Positions 41,932-53,402 of a stretch of 53,402 nucleotides of DNA are shown piece by piece; the stretch's first letter is position 1, and the number at the start of each line of letters is the position of its first letter. The DNA lies in the NCBI GenBank assembly GCA_965197725.1, contig CBDANQ010000045.1, forward strand, positions 1-53,402, in the 5' to 3' direction. This stretch comes from Longimicrobiales bacterium. Lineage in GTDB: Bacteria > Gemmatimonadota > Gemmatimonadetes > Longimicrobiales > Gaopeijiaceae. A program made the position numbers and the translations under genes. The notes beneath the pieces were generated by a model. The model was not told the origin of the DNA, searched no databases, and worked only from the letters and a program-made list of their open reading frames with translations.

Positions 41932-42046
41932 CAGGCCGCATTCAGGGCTTGTTCCGATCTGTCACAAACTGTCCGCGGATCGCAGAAGGGCCCTCCGGCG
42001 CCGCTCGTCCAGGGGCGTTCTGTTGCCTTCAGGAACAAGGCTTCGA

Positions 42047-42667
42047 ATGACAAAGCATTGGCTCATGGGCGGGCTGGCCGGCGTCTTCGTGCTCGCTGGT
42101 CTCGCGTTCGTCCAGGGTGGAGGTATCCAGGGCGAAGCAGGAGCCGAGAGTCCGGCCGACTTCGAGTCCGGGCAGCCCATCGCTTTCCCCCACAATCAGC
42201 ACGCCGGCGATCAGCCGGGGCAGAACAACATGGACTGCCAGTTCTGCCACTTCTCGGCGGAGCGGTCGGTCGACGCGGGCATCCCGTCGGTCGCGACGTG
42301 CTGGGGCTGCCACCAGGCGATTCCCGGAACGAACAACCCGAATGAGGTCGCTAAAATCAAGGGGTACCTGGATCGTGACGAGCCGATTCCGTGGGTGAGG
42401 ATCTACAAGATTGCGGACCACGCACACTTCCCTCACATGCGGCACATCAACGCGGGTCTCGAGTGCCAGCAGTGCCACGGTGAGGTCCAGGAGATGGAGG
42501 TGCTGTCCAAACCGGACGGATGGTGGGTTCCAACAACGGAGTTGTTTTTCGGACAAGATCCGGTCTGGGGTGGCGACAACATGGGGTGGTGTGTGGAGTG
42601 CCACCGGCAGCCGGATGAGAACGGCGAGCCGCAGGCGTCCACGGACTGCGCCGTCTGCCACTACTAG
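42047..42667 (+). CDS. actA: Alternative complex III pentaheme cytochrome c subunit
   Basis: QPIAFPH..H, five CxxCH motifs (CQFCH, CWGCH, CQQCH, CVECH, CAVCH), IPWVRIY. Confidence 0.9.
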   Translation: MTKHWLMGGLAGVFVLAGLAFVQGGGIQGEAGAESPADFESGQPIAFPHNQHAGDQPGQNNMDCQFCHFSAERSVDAGIPSVATCWGCHQAIPGTNNPNEVAKIKGYLDRDEPIPWVRIYKIADHAHFPHMRHINAGLECQQCHGEVQEMEVLSKPDGWWVPTTELFFGQDPVWGGDNMGWCVECHRQPDENGEPQASTDCAVCHY

Positions 42668-42682
42668 GCGCAGCCGACGACC

Positions 42683-45600
42683 ATGACTGACGGAATCAAA
42701 CGCCGCGACTTCCTCAAGGTACTTGGCGCAACAGGCGCGGGCGCGACGCTGACGGGCTGCTCGGAACCGGAGCGGCTACTGCCGTACGTGGTCGCTCCCG
42801 AAGAGATCACACCGGGTGTCGCGACCTGGTACACGACGGTGTGCGACGGCTGCTCGGCGCAGTGCGGCATGTGGGTGCGCACGCGCGAGGGCCGAGCGGT
42901 AAAGGTCGAGGGTAACCCGAACCACCCCGTCTCTCGCGGTGGTCTCTGCTCCAAGGGTCACGCCACGCTCCAGCACCTCTACAACCCGGATCGCTTCCAC
43001 GGTCCGATGATCCGCGAGGGCGACCTCCTTCGGCAGGGTACGTGGGACGAGGCGGAGCGGGTGCTCGCGGCACGAATCCGAGCGACCGGCAACGTGATGT
43101 TCATCGGTGGTCGCGTGGGTCCTTCGATGAGCAATCTGGTCGACCAGTTCGTCACGGCGGTGAACGGCACACGCGTCGAGTACGACGCGGTGTCCGACGC
43201 TCCGCTGCGCGAAGCGGCCCGCATCGCGTACGGTGCGGCGGGACTACCGCGCTACGACATCGCGAACGCGCGGCTGCTGCTGTCGTTCGGCAACGACTTC
43301 ATCGAGACCGGTTCCTCACCCGTGGCCCACAACAAGGGCCTCGCCGAGATGAGCGCGGTGGATGCGGTGGGCTCGAAAGGACGCTTCGTCTACCTGGGGC
43401 CGCGGCTCTCGACGACAGGGCTGAACGCCGACGAGTGGATCCCGATCCAGCCTGGCTCCGAGGCGGCGGTTGCGCTCGGCATGGCGTCCGTGATTGCGGA
43501 TGACGCCAGCGCCGCGGGCCCCTACGCTGATGTACTACGTTCGTACAGCCCGGCCGCGGCGGCCCAAGCTGCCGGGGTCAGCGAGGATTCGATCCGTGAG
43601 CTCGCGGAGCGCTTCGCTGCTCAGAGCCCGACGCTTGCGCTGGGTCCCGGGGTGGGTGGTCACCACCGGAACGCGACCGCAGCGAATATCGCGGTCATGA
43701 TTCTGAACGAGATCGCCGGTAACGTTGGCCGCACGGTGCACTACGACGCTGATGTGACCGCCGCGGCGGGCGCGTACGCGGACATGGAGTCCGCGGTGAG
43801 CGCGATGGCCGCCGGCCAGGTCGGAGTCGTCATCGTGCACGGCGCGAACCCCGCGTACTCCATGCCGGCCGCGTCCGGCTTTGTGGAAGCGTTCAGCCAG
43901 GCAGCGTTCAAGGTGTCCTTCGCTTCGGCGATGGACGAGACCGCTGGTCTGGCCGACCTGATTCTGCCGGACCGCCACTTCCTCGGAGGCGTGGGGCGAC
44001 TCGATGCCTCGACAGGGCGTGATGGCGCTCCAGCAGCCCGTCATGCAGCCGGTCCCGCACTTCGACTCCAAGCAGGCAGGTGACGTGCTGCTCGCGGCGT
44101 CGGCCCAGCTGGGCAACGACCTCGGAGCGGCGACGTTCTACGAGTTCATGCGCAACGGCCACATTCAGATGCACGACACCGCCCTGGGCGACTTCGAGGC
44201 ATCGTGGCGCCAGGCGTTGCGCGCCGGCGCCGTCGAGTACGACACGGGCACGACGGCTGCGGCACCACAGTTACAGGCACCGGATGTCGCGCTTTCATTC
44301 GACGCCCCAGCGCTCGATCTCGGTGGGGACCTGACGCTGCTGGTCCACCCGTCGCCGAGGTTCGGCGGCGGAGAGTTCTCGAACAGCCCGTGGCTCCAGG
44401 AGCTACCGGATCCGGTCTCGAAGATTACGTGGCACTCGTGGCTGGAGATGAACCCGCACACCGCGGAGCAGCGCGGCATCCGCGAGGGTGACATCGTCAC
44501 CGTGACGTCGCCGCACGGGACAGTAGACGTCCCGATCTGGATCTATCCCGGCATCCGCGAGGACGCGGTCGCGCTCGCGATGGGCGGCGGTCACACGAAC
44601 ATGGGCCGCTGGGCCGACGGAAGCGGAGTGAACGCGTTGGCGCTGCTGCCGTCCGAGTCGGAGCAGCCGTCGGGAGCGATGGTGACGCTTGCGACGACCG
44701 TCACTGTGACTCCCATCGGGGACCGCCGCCGAATCGCGACTGTCGAGGGATCAAACGATCAGCACGACCGGCCGATCGCGCCCGCCGTGGCGCTCGCCGA
44801 TCTCGGGCGCGCACAGGACGGCGAGCAGGAGGAGGGTCACGGCGAACTTCAGGAGCTGCAGGGCGCCGGTGGATTCGTGCCCGTGCCGGCCGAGGGCGGC
44901 GCGTCCACGGCGTTCCCGCTCGAGGGCGCCCAGCACGGTGAGTACGCTGACGCCCACGAGGGTCCGCGCTGGGGGATGGCGATCGACCTGGACAAGTGCA
45001 CGGGATGCAGCGCGTGCGTGACCGCCTGTCAGGCCGAGAACAATGTGCCGTGGGGTCGGTGAGAATCAGATCCTCATGGGCCGGGACATGAACTGGGTGC
45101 GGATCGAACGCTACTACGAGCACGTCGATGCAACGCAGGCCGGTGATCTGGACGTCCGCTTCCTGCCGATGATCTGCCAGCACTGCAGCAACGCGCCGTG
45201 TGAGCCGGTCTGTCCGGTGTTCGCCACGTACCACACGCCTGAAGGTGTGAACGTGCAGATCTACAACCGTTGTGTGGGTACGCGGTACTGCGCGAACAAC
45301 TGCCCGTACAAGGTCCGCGTTTTCAACTGGTATCGTTATGCGGACGAAAACGTCCCCGAGCCGATGAACTGGCAGTGGAACCCGGACGTCACGGTTCGCT
45401 CGAACGGCATCATGGAGAAGTGCAGCTTCTGCATGCAGCGCATACGCGAGGTCGAGAACCGTGCCGCTTTGGAGAGCGGTCGTGAGATCAACGACGGTGA
45501 AATCGTGCCGGCCTGTCAGCAGAGCTGCCCCGCCGAGGCGATCGTTTTCGGCAATATCCGTGACCCGAACTCCCGCGTCTCGCGGGTGATTTCGAGTGAG

Positions 45601-45702
45601 CGCACGTACCGGGCTCTCGACGAAATCGTCAACACGCAGCCGGCTGTGCACTACCTGAAGAAGGTGACGTTCCACGAAGTGGCGTCGGGGGGGCACGAAT
45701 AG
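42683..45702 (+). CDS. actB: Alternative complex III ActB (molybdopterin-oxidoreductase-like + Fe-S domains); two apparent +1 frameshifts (~43985, ~45052)
   Basis: Tat motif KRRDFLK; KVEGNP.HP; FL(E)AWGD restored by removing one G; NSPWLQELPDP; CTGCSAC..AC, CQHC..APC..VCP, CVGTRYCANNCPY, EKCSFC, ACQQSCP. Confidence 0.9.
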
Positions 45703-47079
45703 TGTCTACCGCGACCAAAGAGCGAACCGCGCGCGGAGCGCTACCCCATCCGGACGTCACCAGGCTCGACGACGTCAACCGCGACGTGCTGAGGGCCCTC
45801 GAGACCCCGGGCAAGGGTTGGTGGGCGGTCTTCGCGGTGGTGCCCGCGGGGCGTGGGCCTGTTCGGCATCAGTTGGGGTTGGCAGCTATATAAGGGTATC
45901 GGCGTCTCGGGTCTGAACTCGCCCGTCGGTTGGGGCGTCTACATCACATGCTTCGTCTTCTGGGTCGGTATCGCGCACTCGGGGACGCTGATCTCGGCGA
46001 TTCTGTTCCTCTTCCGGGCGCCGTGGAGACAGTCGATCTACCGGGCCGCGGAGGCGATGACGGTCTTCGCGGTCATGACGGCGGGACTCTTCCCGCTCAT
46101 CCACGTCGGACGTCTCTGGCACGCCTATTGGCTGATTCCGTATCCGAACTCCCGTTTTCTGTGGCCGAACTTCAAGTCGCCGCTGGTATGGGACGTATTT
46201 GCGATCACGACCTATTTCACTGTGTCCGCGACGTTTTTCTATCTGGGAACGATCCCGGACATCGCGGCGGCCCGTGACCGGGCGAGGGGCCTGAGAAAGA
46301 AGCTGTACCAGGTGATCTCACTCGGATGGCGTGGCACCGACCAGCAGTGGCACCACTTCGGCAAGGCATACATCTTCCTCGCGGCGCTCGCTACGCCGCT
46401 GGTCCTTTCGGTGCACTCGGTCGTGTCGTGGGACTTCGCCGTGGCGATCGTGCCGGGCTGGCACACGACGATCTTCGCGCCTTATTTCGTCGCCGGCGCC
46501 ATCTACTCCGGCGTGGCCATGGTCATCACGCTCGTGGTGCCGATCCGGAAGGTCTTCGGCCTCGAGGCGTACCTCACCACGAAGCACTTCGACGCGATGG
46601 CCAAGCTTTGCCTGCTGACGTCGCTGATCGTGTTCTACGCGTACCTGTCCGAGTTCTTCATGGCGTGGTACAGCGGTGAGGAAATCGAGCGCACCGCCTA
46701 CTGGAACCGGCTCTTTGGCACCTACTGGTGGGCGACCTGGATCATGCTGACGTGCAACGGGTTCGTTCCGATCATGCTGTGGTTCAAACGCGTGAGGCAC
46801 TCGATCCCGGCGCTCTTCGTGATCTCGATCTTCGTCAACATCGGGATGTGGTTCGAGCGCTACGTGATCGTCGTGACGTCGCTTCACCACGAGTACGAGC
46901 CGTTCGCATGGGGCATCTACCGGCCGTCCCTCACCGAGATGGGGATTCTGGTCGGGAGCTTCTGCTGGTTCGGCTTCTGGTTCCTGCTCTTCACGAGAAT
47001 CCTCCCGCCCGTCGCGATCCAGGAGCTCAAGGAAGTGCTACCGCCGCCGATTCGTACGCAGAAGGAGGCCCACTCATGA
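45702..47079 (+). CDS. actC: Alternative complex III ActC (NrfD/PsrC family); apparent +1 frameshift in the G-run at ~45848
   Basis: FVFWVGIAHSGTLISA, RAAEAMT, HVGR, SPLVWD, SVHSVVSWDFA, WFERY. Confidence 0.92.
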
Positions 47080-47600
47080 GTAGCACTGCAGGGCTCCTCG
47101 CCTCGTACGAGTACCTCGACTCCACGGTCGGCGCGATCGAGCAGCTCAAGAAAGCCGGATTCAAGGGGGTGAAGGCGTACTCACCGTACCCCGATCACCA
47201 CATCGAGCACGCGCTCGGTTACGACCAGAGCCCGGTTCGCGTTTGGACGCTGGTAGGTGGCCTCACGGGAACCGCGACGGGCTTTGCGTTCACGGCGTGG
47301 ACGTCGATGGACTGGCCTCTGGTGGTTGGCGGTAAACCCATCGTCTCGATTCCGGCCTACATCATCATCGCGTTCGAGTTGACGATTCTATTTGGGGCTC
47401 TGTCGACGTTGAGCGGACTCTTCATTCTCAGTCGCTTGCCCGATGTGAGATCCGCGGTGGTCTATGATCCCGAGTTCACGGCCGGGCGCTACGGCGTATA
47501 CGTCGAGGCGGAGGGCGGTCGCCTCGACGAGGCGAGGAACATCCTGAACGGGCAGGAGCCGATCGAGCTTCGCGAGGGCCAAGGAGGCTCGGATGTTTAA
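47076..47600 (+). CDS. actD: Alternative complex III ActD (DUF3341)
   Basis: YSPYP.H, WPLVVGGKP, FELTILF. Confidence 0.9.
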   Translation: MSSTAGLLASYEYLDSTVGAIEQLKKAGFKGVKAYSPYPDHHIEHALGYDQSPVRVWTLVGGLTGTATGFAFTAWTSMDWPLVVGGKPIVSIPAYIIIAFELTILFGALSTLSGLFILSRLPDVRSAVVYDPEFTAGRYGVYVEAEGGRLDEARNILNGQEPIELREGQGGSDV

Positions 47601-48228
47601 CGTCCGGTTCGCCCGCCCACTCGTTGCGGCCCTCGCGCTCATGACGCTGGCTGGCTGCAAGCCACTCGATGACGTTGCGGTCCTCGTCTTCGGGCGCAGC
47701 ATGCGCGATCAGCGCTCGTTCGATCCGTACGAGAACCCGCGCGGCGCGCCTGAGAACTCGGTGGCGTTCGCTTCGGCCAACTATCCTGCCGAGCCGGGTG
47801 AGGTCAACCTCGGACAGCCGGAAGGCGCCGACGTGCCGCCTTTCACCCAGAGCGATCTGGGCACGCCGGGTCAGGGCGGGCCCGCGATCCAGGGGCTCGT
47901 GAACCCGATGGATGCCAACGATCCGCTGTCGATGGCGCGTGGCGAGGAGATCTACCTGCGCTTCTGCGTGGTGTGCCACGGCCCAGACGGCGTCGGCGCG
48001 AACGCGTATATCGCCGACAAGCACCCGCTGCTGCCGGCGTACAACGTGTCTGGTGAGCAGGTCGCCGCGTACAGCGACCAGTACCTCTACGCGTTGATTC
48101 GCGTCGGGCGCGGGCTCATGCCCGAGTACGGCAGCCGGATCACGCACTTCGACCGTTGGAGTGTCGTGAACTACGTGCGACAGCTGCAAAGGCAGGCGGG
48201 TAACACGCCGGCTGGAGGAGGCGAGTAA
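47593..48228 (+). CDS. actE: Alternative complex III ActE monoheme cytochrome c lipoprotein
   Basis: Lipobox LAGC, CVVCH, GRGLMP.Y, DRW.VV.YVR.LQ. Confidence 0.9.
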   Translation: MFNVRFARPLVAALALMTLAGCKPLDDVAVLVFGRSMRDQRSFDPYENPRGAPENSVAFASANYPAEPGEVNLGQPEGADVPPFTQSDLGTPGQGGPAIQGLVNPMDANDPLSMARGEEIYLRFCVVCHGPDGVGANAYIADKHPLLPAYNVSGEQVAAYSDQYLYALIRVGRGLMPEYGSRITHFDRWSVVNYVRQLQRQAGNTPAGGGE

Positions 48229-49529
48229 TGTCTCACCTTCACATGCCAAGCGAAGTCCCGGTCCGGTACCTGCCCCGTTCAAGGAATGCCTCGATGCTGG
48301 CGGGAGGCCTCTTCGTGGTTGGTCTTGCGGCGTTCGTGATTCGGCTCGGGCAGGATCCGGGCTCGGCCTGGATCAGCTATGTCTCGAACTGGCTGTACTT
48401 CACGAGTATTTCGATCGGCGGCGTGCTCTTCGCGTTCGTGACATGGATCACCAAAGCCAAGTGGAACTGGTCGATGCGCCGCGTCAGCCAGTCGTTCGTG
48501 GCGTTCCTGCCGATCTCGTTGGTGCTGATGTTGCCGATGCTGCTCTTCCTCCGGGAGAACTACTTCCCATGGATCGAGATGATGGCCACGGACGCGATCG
48601 TCCAGAACAAAGCGGCATATCTGAACATACCGTTCCTGGTCACGCGTAACCTCGTGTGCCTGCTAGCGCTGTTCGGCATGGCGCTGTACTTCGTGTACCA
48701 CGCGCTGCGCCCGGACATGGGACTTACGAGCGGCGCCGAGGGAGGCGATCCGGTACGCGCGACGTGGCGCGGGCGCCTCACTCAGGGCTGGATGGGTCAG
48801 GAGCAGGAAGAGGTCAATAGCTACAAGCGCATGACTGCCATCGCTCCCGCGTTTGTCATCGTGTACGCCCTCGTCATGAGCGTCATCGTGTACGACTGGG
48901 TGATGACGCTCGAACCCCACTGGTTCAGCACGATGATCGGTCCTTGGTTCTTCATGGGCGCGTTCTGGGGCGGAATCGCATGCACCGCGCTGTGGAGCCT
49001 GTATCTGCGCACCCAACACGCCGACTTCAAGAACCACATCGGGCTCCAGCAGCGGCACGACATTGGCAAGCTCGCCTTCGCGTTCTGCGTATTCTGGACC
49101 TACCTGTTCTTCGGCCAGTACCTCGTGATCTGGTACGGAAAGCTGGTGTGGGAGCAGGCGTGGATCGTGACCCGGTCGGACCCGGCCTCGTGGGGCCCGT
49201 ACTCGTTGATGGTGATCGTGCTTTGTTTCGTGATCCCGTTCGCGGGACTGATGGGCCGGAAGCCAAAGATGAAGCCGAAGTTGCTGGCGTTCTTCACGTC
49301 GGTGATCGTGCTGGGGCTGTGGTTCGAGCGCTACGGCATGGTTGCTCCTTCGCTGTGGCACGAGGGTGAGCCGATCTTCACGATCTGGCAGCCGCTGATC
49401 GCTTGCATGTTCCTGGGGCTGTATCTGGGAGCGGTGCGGTGGTTCTTGAGCACGTTTCCGGCGATGCAGGTTTGGCAGCCTATGGTGGACGCGGAGACTG
49501 TTGAGGCGGAGCTCGTAGCCGCGGACTGA
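48228..49529 (+). CDS. actF: Alternative complex III ActF membrane subunit
   Basis: YLN.PF..R, DWVMTLEPHWFST, HDIGKL, FWTY..F.QYLVIWY. Confidence 0.9.
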   Translation: MSHLHMPSEVPVRYLPRSRNASMLAGGLFVVGLAAFVIRLGQDPGSAWISYVSNWLYFTSISIGGVLFAFVTWITKAKWNWSMRRVSQSFVAFLPISLVLMLPMLLFLRENYFPWIEMMATDAIVQNKAAYLNIPFLVTRNLVCLLALFGMALYFVYHALRPDMGLTSGAEGGDPVRATWRGRLTQGWMGQEQEEVNSYKRMTAIAPAFVIVYALVMSVIVYDWVMTLEPHWFSTMIGPWFFMGAFWGGIACTALWSLYLRTQHADFKNHIGLQQRHDIGKLAFAFCVFWTYLFFGQYLVIWYGKLVWEQAWIVTRSDPASWGPYSLMVIVLCFVIPFAGLMGRKPKMKPKLLAFFTSVIVLGLWFERYGMVAPSLWHEGEPIFTIWQPLIACMFLGLYLGAVRWFLSTFPAMQVWQPMVDAETVEAELVAAD

Positions 49530-49605
49530 CTGGCCTGTGGAGGGACCGCCGGATGGGCTGTGCTCGCCGCGCTTCGGCTTAATCGGGTTTGGTCGGGGGT
49601 GCTGG

Positions 49606-49760
49606 CGGTGGGCGCTTGGTCTGAGTTCGCGGGGGGCTAAGGCTCCTGCGCGGGCATTCGTTCGCTTCGCTCACACGTGGGCCGCTTCGCGGTCCACGTT
49701 GCCCGTCTTCGGAGCCTGTTCGCGGGGTACGCCTGCGCGCTCTGAGCAGAACCCACCCGT
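49606..49760. other. Nested inverted-repeat (structured) intergenic element
   Basis: GGCTCC(49641)/GGAGCC(49711), GGGCA(49652)/TGCCC(49700), ACGTGGGCCGC-TTC-GCGGTCCACGT (49675-49699), and outer GGTGGG/CCCACC. Confidence 0.6.
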
Positions 49761-49860
49761 CGGTCCCAATACCGGTTTTGCTTGCGGGGGAGGTTGGGTG
49801 GGGCGGGGTGGCCGATCCCAGCATTCTATTGACCCGCGGGCGTGGCGACCGTGGGCTACC

Positions 49861-50742
49861 ATGAATGCCAACACACGAGCGACTCTGCCTGACTGGCTGC
49901 AGGAGCTCCTGCAGTGTCTCGACGACGAGCTGGTGCTGCGCGGCTATGCGCGACAAACGCGGTCGCTGTATTCGGCTCACGTGCGACGATTCTATGCGGG
50001 GAGAACGAGCGCGGATCAGGTGGCCACGGACGAGGAGGTCCGCGCCTGGATGCTGGGTATGCTCCGGTCAGGTTTGTCGCACAGTTATGCCAACCAAGTG
50101 CTGAGCTCGCTCAGGTTCCTGCACCGATACGTCCTGAACGTGCCTGCTCCGGTGGCCGACATCCCGCGGCCGAAACGTGAGAAGACACTGCCCAAGATTC
50201 TCAGCGAGCCGGAGGTGCGTCGCTTCCTAGAGGAGCTCGGATCACCCAAGCACCGGGCCATCGCATTCGTTCTCTATTCCGCCGGGTTACGCGTGGGCGA
50301 GGTGGCGCGGCTACGGGTGGAGGACATCGATTCGCAGCGAGCGCAGATCCATGTGCGCCTGGGGAAGGGGGGCAAAGACCGCTATGCCATACTGTCGCCG
50401 GTGGTCCTGGGTGTGTTGAGGGAATACGTCCGGCTGGAGCGACCCGAGCACTGGCTTTTTCCCGGCGGGAAGAGGCGGGACAAACACATTACAACCAGGA
50501 CCATCCAAAAGCAGGTCTCCCGGGCCGGGAGGAAAGCCGGCATCAGAAAGCGTGTCACGCCGCACATGCGACGTCACAGCTTTGCGACCCATCTCCTGGA
50601 GGGCGGAACGGACCTGAAGAGCATCCAGGAACTGCTCGGGCACAGGAAGATCTCCACGACGGTCATCTACACCCATGTGGCTCAGCCCAAGCTCCGGAAG
50701 ATTACGAGCCCCATCGACAGGCTCTTCGAGGATGATGAATAG
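49861..50742 (+). CDS. Tyrosine recombinase (N-terminal SAM-like domain; integron-integrase-like but lacking the IntI insertion)
   Basis: LRGYA..T...Y, YSAGLRVGE (R), GKGGKDR (K), HMRRHSFATH (HxxR), IQELLGH, TVIYTHV (Y), C-terminal SPID. Confidence 0.92.
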   Translation: MNANTRATLPDWLQELLQCLDDELVLRGYARQTRSLYSAHVRRFYAGRTSADQVATDEEVRAWMLGMLRSGLSHSYANQVLSSLRFLHRYVLNVPAPVADIPRPKREKTLPKILSEPEVRRFLEELGSPKHRAIAFVLYSAGLRVGEVARLRVEDIDSQRAQIHVRLGKGGKDRYAILSPVVLGVLREYVRLERPEHWLFPGGKRRDKHITTRTIQKQVSRAGRKAGIRKRVTPHMRRHSFATHLLEGGTDLKSIQELLGHRKISTTVIYTHVAQPKLRKITSPIDRLFEDDE

Positions 50743-50896
50743 GGGCGGGGTTGGGTGCCACCGTGTGTGGGACGCGATACGACGTGAATTGTGCCCCTTC
50801 GCGAACAGCCTACGATTTCCTCAATGATCGCTTCAACTGTCGACATTCGCGATTCTGGCCGGCAGGTCCCATAGCTGATACGGTTCGTGAGTTCGT

Positions 50897-50913
50897 CCGT
50901 TAACTGACATGTC
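50897..50913 (+). other. Candidate attI-like recombination core
   Basis: CCGTTAACTGACATG matches the right end of the downstream attC-like site (CCGTTATGTGACATG) at 13/15 positions. Confidence 0.5.
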
Positions 50914-50994
50914 TTCCAGCAGCTTCAGGGGCGTTGGACTGAAGGACGCTCAAATCCTGGTCGTACGGGTTGAAGCAAGAGGTGGCCGAGCTGC

Positions 50995-51781
50995 ATGAAG
51001 CGATCTTTCGTGTCGGAATCCAGGTTGAGTATCAGCGAGAGTACAAGGGAGTTCACTGACCGAGAATTCGCCCTCATCCTGAGCAAGGCGGCTGAGTTGG
51101 CGAGATCGTCCGGCGTAGCCGAGCGGCCCGCGACTGGATTCTCGCTGGAGGAAATGAAGGCGATCGCCGCCGAGGCCGGCCTGGATCCCGTCCTTGTCGA
51201 ACGGGCGGCTCGCCTAATCCCGTCTGATTCGAGCGGATCCCGGATCGAGCGGATGCTCGGCGGGCCAGTCAAGTATCGGCTCGAGGCCCTCTTCAGCACG
51301 AGACTGACCGACGACCAGGCAGCCCACCTCCTCTCAGCGGTCAGGGCCGCCGTCGAGCAGCAGGGTGAGGGCCAAGCCGACTCGACTGGTATGACCTGGC
51401 ACTCCGTCGGTGAAGCGAGTCAGATCCTGGTGACCGCCCATGCCGAGGGTGAAGGAACACGCGTACGGGTGGTCGTCGCCCGACGCGGCGCCTTGGCTAT
51501 CACTGGCACGTTCACTTTGCTCGGGGCACTCGTGTTCGCCATCGCTGTTGTAGTCGGCGGTGAGATCGGCGCGCTCGAGTCGATCGGTCTCGGGCCTGTC
51601 ACTTATCGCGGGCGGTGTCGCCGGAACCGTTGCTCTTGGACGAGCTGTGTGGGCTTCTACAGCCCGCGGCATTCAGAAAAGGGTGGACGGTCTGATGGAC
51701 ACTGTCGGTCGGTCACTTGGCGACGTTCGTCACCACGCAGCCCCAACGGATTCGGGGGATACATCTCAGCCTGGTCGCTGA
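50995..51781 (+). CDS. Hypothetical membrane protein (cassette-like ORF), apparent frameshift ~51597
   Basis: REFTDREFALILSKAAEL...SLEEMKAIAAEAGLDP...; the second TM helix and C-terminus continue in the frame of ORF 51560..51781. Confidence 0.65.
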
Positions 51782-51886
51782 CATCGTGCAGCTGTGAACT
51801 GGCCCCATCGGGACAGGTGGATCGCATCAATGACCGACCCGCTTGAGAGCTCGCCCTTGTTCGGCGTGGCCACCGCTGGAAGACAC

Positions 51887-52142
51887 GTCACATAACGCCT
51901 GACTCAAGCTCTCGCCTTCGATACCCAACATCGAACCCTCGTAGACATATCTGGTGGATATGCCACTCAGGTTCGCCGGCCTGGCGGGCCGGCTCGCTAC
52001 CGTGGGGTTCGATGCTGGACCTCCGCGCTGTCGCGCTCTGGCTCCTCTGGTCTTACGATGACCAACGGTTCGGCCGCTTCGCGGACACTCCGGTGAGCTG
52101 CGCTCACCTCCGCGTCTTGAGTCAGTGAGCCCGTTATGTGAC
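51887..52142 (+). other. Long attC-like imperfect palindrome (256 bp)
   Basis: GTCACATAAC(51887-96)/GTTATGTGAC(52133-42) and TGACTCAAG(51900-08)/CTTGAGTCA(52116-24) are perfect complements, with several internal hairpins between them. Confidence 0.65.
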
Positions 52143-52342
52143 ATGACTTCTGAAGGTGTCCGGCTGAGCAGCCATATTTTGCCGAGCTCCCAGCCACAAA
52201 CGACGCTACCGACCTCACGCTTATCAGGCACCCACGCGACTGACCCAATCTGAGCAACCTGCCTGAAAAATCAGCCAAAACACGCGGTAGCCCGCGCAGC
52301 CTGCACATCCACTCTGCTCCGAAAGGGCAGCCTGACGTCTCT

Positions 52343-52555
52343 TGTTAGCGGCCTTCCAATATTGCACACATGTGGCCATCGAAAATTGCACACTTGGCGC
52401 TTTGACCTAGCGGGCGGGAGAGTGGGGATGTAGGCACCACCCCGAGCGATCTTCCGGCCGATCCACTCACTTGGCGCCTCCACCGAGAACGTGGAGGTGC
52501 AATGATCGGAAGGGAGAAGCGCGTGCTGCTCCGTCATTACCTCGAGCAGGGGATG
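52343..52555 (+). mobile_element. IS21-family element left end with truncated istA start
   Basis: TGT terminus; two ~20-bp repeats GGCCTTCCAATATTGCACAC (52350) and GGCCATCGAAAATTGCACAC (52374); GGAGG RBS and MIGREKRVLLRHYLEQGM (52502-52555). Confidence 0.75.
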
Positions 52556-53402
52556 TGACCTAGCCCCCTGAAACGAGACCAGGTCCAGTGTTAGAATCTG
52601 GGCGGGTCGAGACCGGGAGGAGGTCGAGATGGCAGCACGGAAGAACTACACGGCAGCGCAGATCATCAACGGGCTACGGCGGGCGGAAGTGGGGCTCGCC
52701 AACGGGAAGTCGCTGAAAGAGGTGATCCGGGATCTAGGGGTGAGCGAGCAGACGTACTACCGGTGGCGGAGGGAGTACGGGGGGGATGAAGACGAGTCAG
52801 GCGAAGCGTCTGAAGGAGCTCGAGAAGGAGAACCATCGACTGAAGCGGGCGGTGGCCGATCTGACGGTGGACAAGATGATCCTGAAGGAAGCGTCAAAGG
52901 GAAACTTCTAAGCCCCGAGCGGCGGAGGCGCTGTGTGGTGCGGGTCCAGCAGCGGCTCGGGGTGAGCGAGAGGCGAGCGTGCGAGGTGTTGGGCCAGGCT
53001 CGATCGACACAACGGAGGAGTCGGAAGAGAGGGGCTGATGAAGCGGCGCTACGAGCGGACGTGGTCAAGGTGGCGGGTCGGTTCGGTCGCTACGGGTACC
53101 GGATGGTTACAGGGATGTTGAGGGCGGAGGGCTGGGTGGTGAACCACAAGCGGGTGGAGCGGATCTGGAGAGAGGAGGGCCTGAAAGTGCCCAAGAAACA
53201 GCCCAAACGGGGCCGGCTCTGGTTGACGGACGGCTCATGCATCCGGCTTCGACCCTTGTACCGCCATCACGTCTGGGCGTATGACTTCGTGGCGGATCGG
53301 ACGCACGACGGTCGGCCGCTGAAGATGCTGACGGTGTTGGATGAATACAGCCGGGAGTGTCTGGCGATCGTAGTGGCCCGAAGGCTCAGGGCGGACGATG
53401 TG
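52556..53402 (+). mobile_element. IS3-family (IS407-like) insertion sequence, runs off the window end
   Basis: TGACCTAGCCCCC left end; orfA 52629-52911 (EQTYYRWR..YGG, RLKELEKEN; extra G at 52779-85); slippery AAAGGGAAAC at 52896-52905; orfB VSERRAC, YGYR, VNHKRV.R.W, WAYDF, LDEYSREC. Confidence 0.92.

Follow-up and report, generated by a model that had tools for sequence, protein, structure and literature searches.

The head of a probable folded-site cassette array behind a tyrosine recombinase without the integron integrase insertion, in a Longimicrobiales genome

Can a cassette array be headed by a recombinase that lacks the very feature by which integron integrases are recognized? The I2 insertion is, for the field, what defines the integron integrase, IntI, and its joint origin with the attC site is put by Escudero et al. 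as a chicken-and-egg paradox (PMC4792948), with intermediates in integron evolution described as lacking (PMC7790495). The issue is raised here by a stretch of 53,402 nucleotides, called the window below, which is contig C45 of a Longimicrobiales genome (G000; 3.0 Mb, 89% complete). A first-pass annotation, made from the letters of the window, proposed that near its right end there is an integron-like system with an insertion-less recombinase. The features concerned are as follows, with coordinates in the window.

49542..49767, no strand assigned: 226-bp palindrome (arms of 40 nt) separating the host operon from the recombinase
49861..50742, plus strand: tyrosine recombinase, 293 aa, without the IntI insertion and without N-terminal extension; Leu237Arg in box II
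50846..50901, plus strand: attI-like primary site, kept in relatives G001, G003 and (last part) G120 up to GTT, divergent beyond
50899..50920, plus strand: R' arm (GTTA-NNN-GAC-A...) of cassette 1, able to pair with the far end of the same cassette at 19/22 positions
50900..52133, plus strand: cassette 1, with a presumed G/TT crossover to the next one
50995..51781, plus strand: cassette gene for a hypothetical protein, frameshifted near 51592-51600; as it stands reads to 51846
51875..52144, plus strand: attC-like site, with R'' arm (51875-51896), 5-nt spacer, L stem, branched centre, 10-nt spacer and GTT at 52133
52134..52342, plus strand: remnant of cassette 2, no notable ORF
52343..52555, plus strand: left end of an IS found, nearly unchanged, at many other places in the genome and encoding, where complete, a transposase and an ATPase; presumably of the IS21 family
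52556..53402, plus strand: second IS, inserted in the first, with PF01527, running off the contig; presumably of the IS3 family

What sort of enzyme is this? The protein matches PF00589 (E 1e-39) and PF13495 (E 2e-7), and the full catalytic set read off in the first pass is indeed in place, as R144, K169, H235, R238, H261 and Y270. The absence of the insertion was also borne out. Residues 193-206 align opposite 184-238 of VchIntIA; between shared anchor columns the window enzyme has 28 residues, where all 12 IntI proteins compared have 67-68, and the count is 27-28 in all 18 array-heading proteins compared; the match to TIGR02249 is split into two stretches, with a gap of 40 residues, and, at 210.6 bits, is below the cut-off of 265. 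In the predicted structure (pLDDT 85.5), which has an ordinary Xer-like fold, there is no helix at the place of the insertion. As the IntI family is defined, the window system is outside it. An upstream start giving 401 aa was considered and dropped, as it would overlap the palindrome and the homologues begin at the same Met. Counting from that Met, the core is reached after 19 residues, a figure that most close homologues share: those of at least 55% identity have short N-termini, mostly of 19 residues, whereas those below 55% often have about 90, and the window subclade is without the N-terminal extension found in relatives. One distant homologue, P0104, gives a weak match to HARP (PF07443, E 0.025, under cut-off); no HARP-like N-terminal domain was found on the window recombinase. 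Box II, HMRRH, has an oddity. Of 104 aligned proteins 101 have Leu at position 237 and one, the window copy, has Arg, and the same Arg is present in a contig of sequencing run X2, a possible source sample; the substitution has possibly impaired the enzyme.

To what is it kin? The named relatives of both the recombinase and the cassette protein are for the most part from Gemmatimonadota. The enzyme groups with IntI and the IS91 recombinases at 100/100, outside the Xer branch; all Xer family profiles score under their cut-offs (NF040815 at 205.7 against 220), and G000 has separate Xer-like genes on contigs C61 and C15. In a tree of 45 proteins those that head arrays fall together (85/86, not starred), and neither IntI (100/100) nor any of 12 IS91-linked enzymes joins them; a single clade of array enzymes plus IntI is not rejected (p-AU 0.38). 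Of 101 homologues sampled, 61 precede an IS91-type transposase, as judged by motif, and the genes behind were Y2 transposases by Pfam in 11 of 11 tested. No Y2 transposase is downstream in the window or behind the orthologues, and the IS91 linkage that the first pass had seen as a threat to its proposal goes with a separate branch. About 150-200 bp before the recombinase match in G129 (locus L128) there is a short stretch which resembles the start of an IS91-type transposase. Matches to the window enzyme at E 1e-55 or better, IS91-linked copies included, are in 67 of the 151 genomes of the host family and IntI (E 1e-60) is in 41 of them; the distribution of the window enzyme's relatives is patchy.

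The first GTT core is at 50899, on the same strand and 156 bp past the recombinase stop, where a GTTA core had been claimed at about 155 bp. The 22-nt left arm of the palindromic site matches this first core at 19 of 22 positions, and among 6.0 million positions of the genome only one other place, on contig C25, reaches at least 17/22. TAAC is at 51893, the inner arms are ACTCAAG (51902-51908) and CTTGAGT (52116-52122), and the L stem has no bulge. Predicted folding of the palindrome is better than chance: z is -8.5 for the bottom strand and -6.6 for the top, and none of 200 shuffles was as good for either strand. The palindromic site is real, but ‘giant’, as it was first called, was an overstatement, since from AAC to GTT it is 242 bp, among the longer members of a family that ranges from 123 to 301 bp (median 138, n=77). 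Similarly, there is an ORF between the cores, but not an intact one; judged against eight homologues, it is frameshifted near 51592-51600. The protein is hydrophobic in its C-terminal part and belongs to no Pfam family. Two IS elements do break the locus, as proposed, but what comes first after the site is the remnant of cassette 2. Within that remnant 52206-52227 is an exact 22-nt match to a tRNA-Ile gene (31 nt in L126), and may, going by the match, mark the integration site of another element. The IS at 52343 is near-identical at more than a dozen places in G000, a sign of its apparently recent spread.

Upstream, window 42023-49529 is a respiratory operon with cytochrome c, molybdopterin-fold, Fe-S and NrfD subunits, presumably encoding alternative complex III. 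Its molybdopterin-fold/Fe-S gene seems split in three ORFs (42683-44083, 44004-45062 and 45043-45702), possibly by frameshifts. The palindrome that follows is 84% conserved in the congeneric G001 and G003, was absent from the other loci compared and has no Rfam match; Rfam gave two chance-level matches only for the window, and a scan of 49500-52400 for sigma-70-type promoters gave none. Because the enzyme is doubtful, the first gene broken and the array cut by two IS, the window copy is, to judge from its letters, probably a relic. Reads bear on the surroundings also. Contigs from runs X1, X2 and X4 join 50924 to 51679, with short sides of 20-28 letters, so skipping 754 bases, which reflects either an internal deletion of cassette 1 or the sequence of another organism. 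In X1 and X2 the summed depth is 20-70 over 51850-52185 versus about 2 in the flanks, and shorter variants occur too; therefore other organisms in the sample carry many related sites.

Is a lone decayed site of any consequence? It would be of little, were it not for relatives. The first pass had one complete site in view, and G000 turned out to have no second, only two remnants, on contigs C3 and C17. Elsewhere copies abound, as its proposal required. A 17-nt left-arm pattern, with at most one mismatch, is in 23 of the family's 151 genomes (2 for the reversed control), and a profile built on 37 seed sites picked up 105 hits, spread over 18 stretches. After removal of 20 that were partial, inverted or unclear and 8 from redundant or single-site stretches, 77 sites were left for analysis. 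Orthologous recombinases are followed by co-oriented sites, 28 in G141 (plus one inverted), 12 in G001, 10 in G120, 6 in G129, 2 in G063 and 1 in G003. All seven subclade members with at least 10 kb downstream have at least one site, with that of G091 belonging to another site family; where less than 5 kb is available the window alone has one, and G088 has none in 4.7 kb. There is no array behind the relatives in G027, over 16.6 kb, or L076, over 10 kb, and G154 has five sites with neither enzyme found (genome 90% complete). The downstream genes had been expected to be variable rather than conserved, and they differ. In G001 (85% identity) and G003 (frameshifted) the orthologue follows the same host operon, and sequence is shared up to GTT and divergent from there, so that one chromosomal position has different first cassettes in G000, G001 and G003. 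The window does hold a real integron-like array head.

Some further arrays deserve mention. Directly behind the recombinase of G141 an inverted site (L145:3837-3968) is at the expected place of the primary site and is followed by toxin-antitoxin-like gene pairs. Insertion-less relatives with similar R' arms also head arrays in one Clostridia and one Cyclobacteriaceae genome (L045, L071). The family's canonical IntI genes are co-oriented with their arrays of up to 25 sites (L150, L172-L176), as in Treponema integrons. Thus the shared orientation of recombinase and array noted in the first pass holds for the orthologues but is not special to them, and it was dropped as a class marker.

How do the sites of the two sorts of enzyme compare? 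A site caller blind to class was run over 36 loci, 11 led by IntI and 25 by insertion-less enzymes. It called arrays behind 6 of the 11 and 15 of the 25. At the L-stem position, to which the bulge tests were confined, one base is bulged in 72 of 74 IntI-led sites, with G at position 9 in 66, versus 5 of 137 behind insertion-less enzymes, three of those five being in the array of G091, where 3 of 4 sites have one. Among the 77 sites, removal of one left-arm base improves the L stem in 7. The difference persists where both kinds of array are in the same genome, with bulges in 12/12 IntI-led against 0/5 insertion-less sites in G072, 15/15 against 0/17 in G094, and 8/10 against 1/8 in G174. Arm position 11 is distinctive in another way: 46 of 61 pairs have C:A there on the top strand, equivalent to G·T on the bottom, and top-strand G·T never occurs. 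The mismatch recurs in 62/66 and 27/38 own-cassette pairs of two insertion-less groups, and behind IntI is outside the five commonest pairs. The R' consensus GTTRRRY fits 36 of 74 IntI-led sites, 7 of 50 sites in the window subclade and 13 of 87 other insertion-less sites. Profiles of the two site classes gave a single cross-hit, a degenerate IntI-type site within the G001 array, and, of 173 cassettes, none of the 25 matches at 80% or more crosses between array classes. A strict canonical-attC pattern found zero sites in five IntI loci, and a looser one found one. Bottom-strand folding is more stable than top in 67 of 77 sites (49 of 87 in the sister subclade), and the right spacer is 4-5 nt longer than the left in 60 of 77. 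That lopsidedness was considered as a class marker and discarded, since IntI-led sites have one too, of 3-4 nt. The primary site ends at GTT, is kept in relatives to that point and varies beyond it; in it the L-like box is 5-6 nt from GTT, versus 9-10 nt in array sites. Sequence comparison thus points to two systems within one host group, with site class matched to enzyme class.

Do the cassettes move? When the two ends of one cassette are paired, full agreement at the three variable bases that follow GTTA is seen in 33 of 61 cases, versus 8 of 77 in the pairings present in the array and 6.4% at random, counts to be read with the proviso that kin share cassettes and the trials are not independent. 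Pairing between cassette ends extends to about position 16. In G141 identical cassettes recur, with differing sites upstream and the same site downstream. Because of this end pairing and these duplications, the unit is taken to comprise a gene and the palindrome that follows it, and the point of exchange to be the right-hand GTT or a position adjoining it. In 53 of 69 cassettes it is the array strand that carries the longest ORF. From such comparisons the cassettes would move as they do in integrons. No circle or empty-site junction was among the joints listed from four runs, which are of contigs only and cannot show absence.

The reading that we favour, and hold to be probable, is that of a chromosomal platform for cassette capture, run by the adjacent recombinase through a folded bottom-strand hairpin, with the window copy probably decayed. 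That the recombinase acts on these sites we infer from sequence. The bottom strand of a site would fold into a hairpin, of outer R arm, lopsided spacer and bulge-free L stem, that stands in for a double-stranded recombinase site. The ends of a single cassette pair in a stem of about 16 bp. At the R arm the enzyme would exchange one pair of strands, the partner being either the duplex primary site or a second hairpin, and replication would resolve the junction. The lopsided spacer (5 versus 9-10 nt) and the G·T at position 11 could set strand and direction, and so take the place of the contact between extrahelical base and I2.

Might a canonical IntI elsewhere in the genome instead have built the array in trans, with the adjacent recombinase a passenger or relic? 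There is something to be said for it. Seven of nine window subclade genomes checked have a canonical IntI (G001, G141, G120, G129, G113, G063 and G000 itself, over cut-off on contig C32), the adjacent gene is damaged not only in G000 by Leu237Arg but also in G003 (frameshift) and G120 (truncation), extrahelical bases are dispensable for the recombination of some attC sites (PMC5027507), and there is the one IntI-type remnant in the G001 array. However, the site families are distinct and unmixed in the three genomes with both arrays, cassettes do not cross between classes, and the insertion-less gene has the conserved primary site immediately behind it. Moreover, in nine genomes with short-enzyme sites, picked for this test and seven of them from the sister group, nothing was over the TIGR02249 cut-off (G050, G058, G060, G040, G130 on its one contig, G125, G078, G091 and G003); in G050 a fragment of 100 aa is perhaps what remains of an IntI. 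Construction in trans is, on balance, unlikely. As to what G000 itself has of canonical integrons, C32:57671-64063 holds intI (61015-61956, plus strand) with several IntI-type sites around it, interrupted by IS, and further IntI-type sites are on contigs C38, C52, C60, C29 and C21.

Alternatively, the adjacent enzyme could act on duplex DNA in the ordinary way, exchanging strands twice, and the palindrome would then be just a pair of inverted binding sites. An enzyme without I2 invites the thought, and a classical pathway is possible for integrons in theory (PMC4792948); the primary site ends in a sequence similar to the array site's right half (TCGTGAG...CCGTT), and the R' arm agrees with the XerD arm of dif at 3.3-3.8 of 8 positions (about 1.9 when shuffled, 1.6 for IntI sites), a modest likeness that is a lead only. 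Against this, the distance from L to GTT is not the same in primary and array sites and the spacer sequences vary, while the strand-specific G·T, the agreement of variable positions at the two ends of a cassette and the folded centres point to a single strand. We regard it as quite improbable. Very improbable indeed, and largely refuted, is a shufflon-like invertible segment with arms at 50898-50920 and 51875-51897, or an IS91-type element minus its transposase. These arms are, to be sure, inverted repeats of 23 nt, most sampled homologues precede IS91-type transposases, confirmed by Pfam wherever tested, and an IS91-like fragment appears ahead of the G129 gene. Yet array sites face one way except for the inverted copy in G141, the longest ORFs tend, as counted above, to be on the array strand, and the IS91-linked enzymes are another branch.

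With the platform run by its adjacent recombinase as the preferred reading, we lean, with rather less assurance, towards a broader one, namely that there is a second integron class, without I2 and without extrahelical bases and here in a minimal form that has no domain added at either end of the comparison, neither at the N-terminus nor at the place of I2, which exists beside canonical integrons in the same cells and draws on a separate cassette pool. An I2-less enzyme with bulge-free sites is a natural system with which the origin of I2 and attC becomes testable. Should the branch prove older than IntI, then cassette arrays with folded sites predate I2, and the chicken-and-egg problem has an answer. 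It is plausible that insertion-less arrays escape standard integron detectors because IntegronFinder defines IntI by the insertion and, if so, integron surveys overlook a parallel store of mobile genes. An enzyme of 293 residues that works on folded DNA is also a possible compact recombination tool.

How does all this sit with what has been described? The resemblance to sedentary chromosomal integrons is close, with recombinase, primary site and then cassettes of gene plus palindrome bounded by AAC and GTT, and it extends to the 5-nt spacer to the L box, chimeric R arms, cassette duplication and bottom-strand bias. Unlike integrons, the window system is without the 40-residue IntI insertion and without an extrahelical base in the L stem, its R' is GTTA-NNN-G-N-N-A rather than GTTRRRY, and it has the conserved C:A / G·T at position 11, a longer outer stem and longer sites. 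Co-orientation of enzyme and array is shared with integrons of the Treponema type, whose integrase faces the same way as its array (PMC3607928). The IS91-associated ‘Integron-like subgroup’ also has PF13495 and PF00589 with no insertion, at about 40-48% identity to the window enzyme, but its members precede a Y2 transposase, are without an array and are on a separate branch. Smyshlyaev et al. (10.1101/542381) report that the insertion is absent from the closest homologues of IntI, and the portions of that study considered here make no mention of cassette arrays for insertion-less members. In the literature searched, mostly that outside subscription journals, no description was found of cassette arrays led by insertion-less recombinases. 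In one survey 21 such integrases were near attC sites, four intermediate ones always with fewer than three, and were judged not to be IntI (PMC4889954); going by that account, these 21 cases may include members of the insertion-less array class. The best PDB matches by sequence and fold, 4a8e and 5hxy, are archaeal XerA / XerCD, yet the window enzyme is not of the Xer branch. A further parallel is that of XerCD and phage CTXphi, where a folded, bulge-free site is recombined without I2 (PMC4792948). An I2-less recombinase, a folded single strand and the lack of extrahelical bases are common to both, and by analogy with that case strand-transfer chemistry of this type would need no I2. CTXphi, however, borrows two host enzymes for one site, whereas the system seen in the window has a dedicated enzyme and an array of many cassettes.
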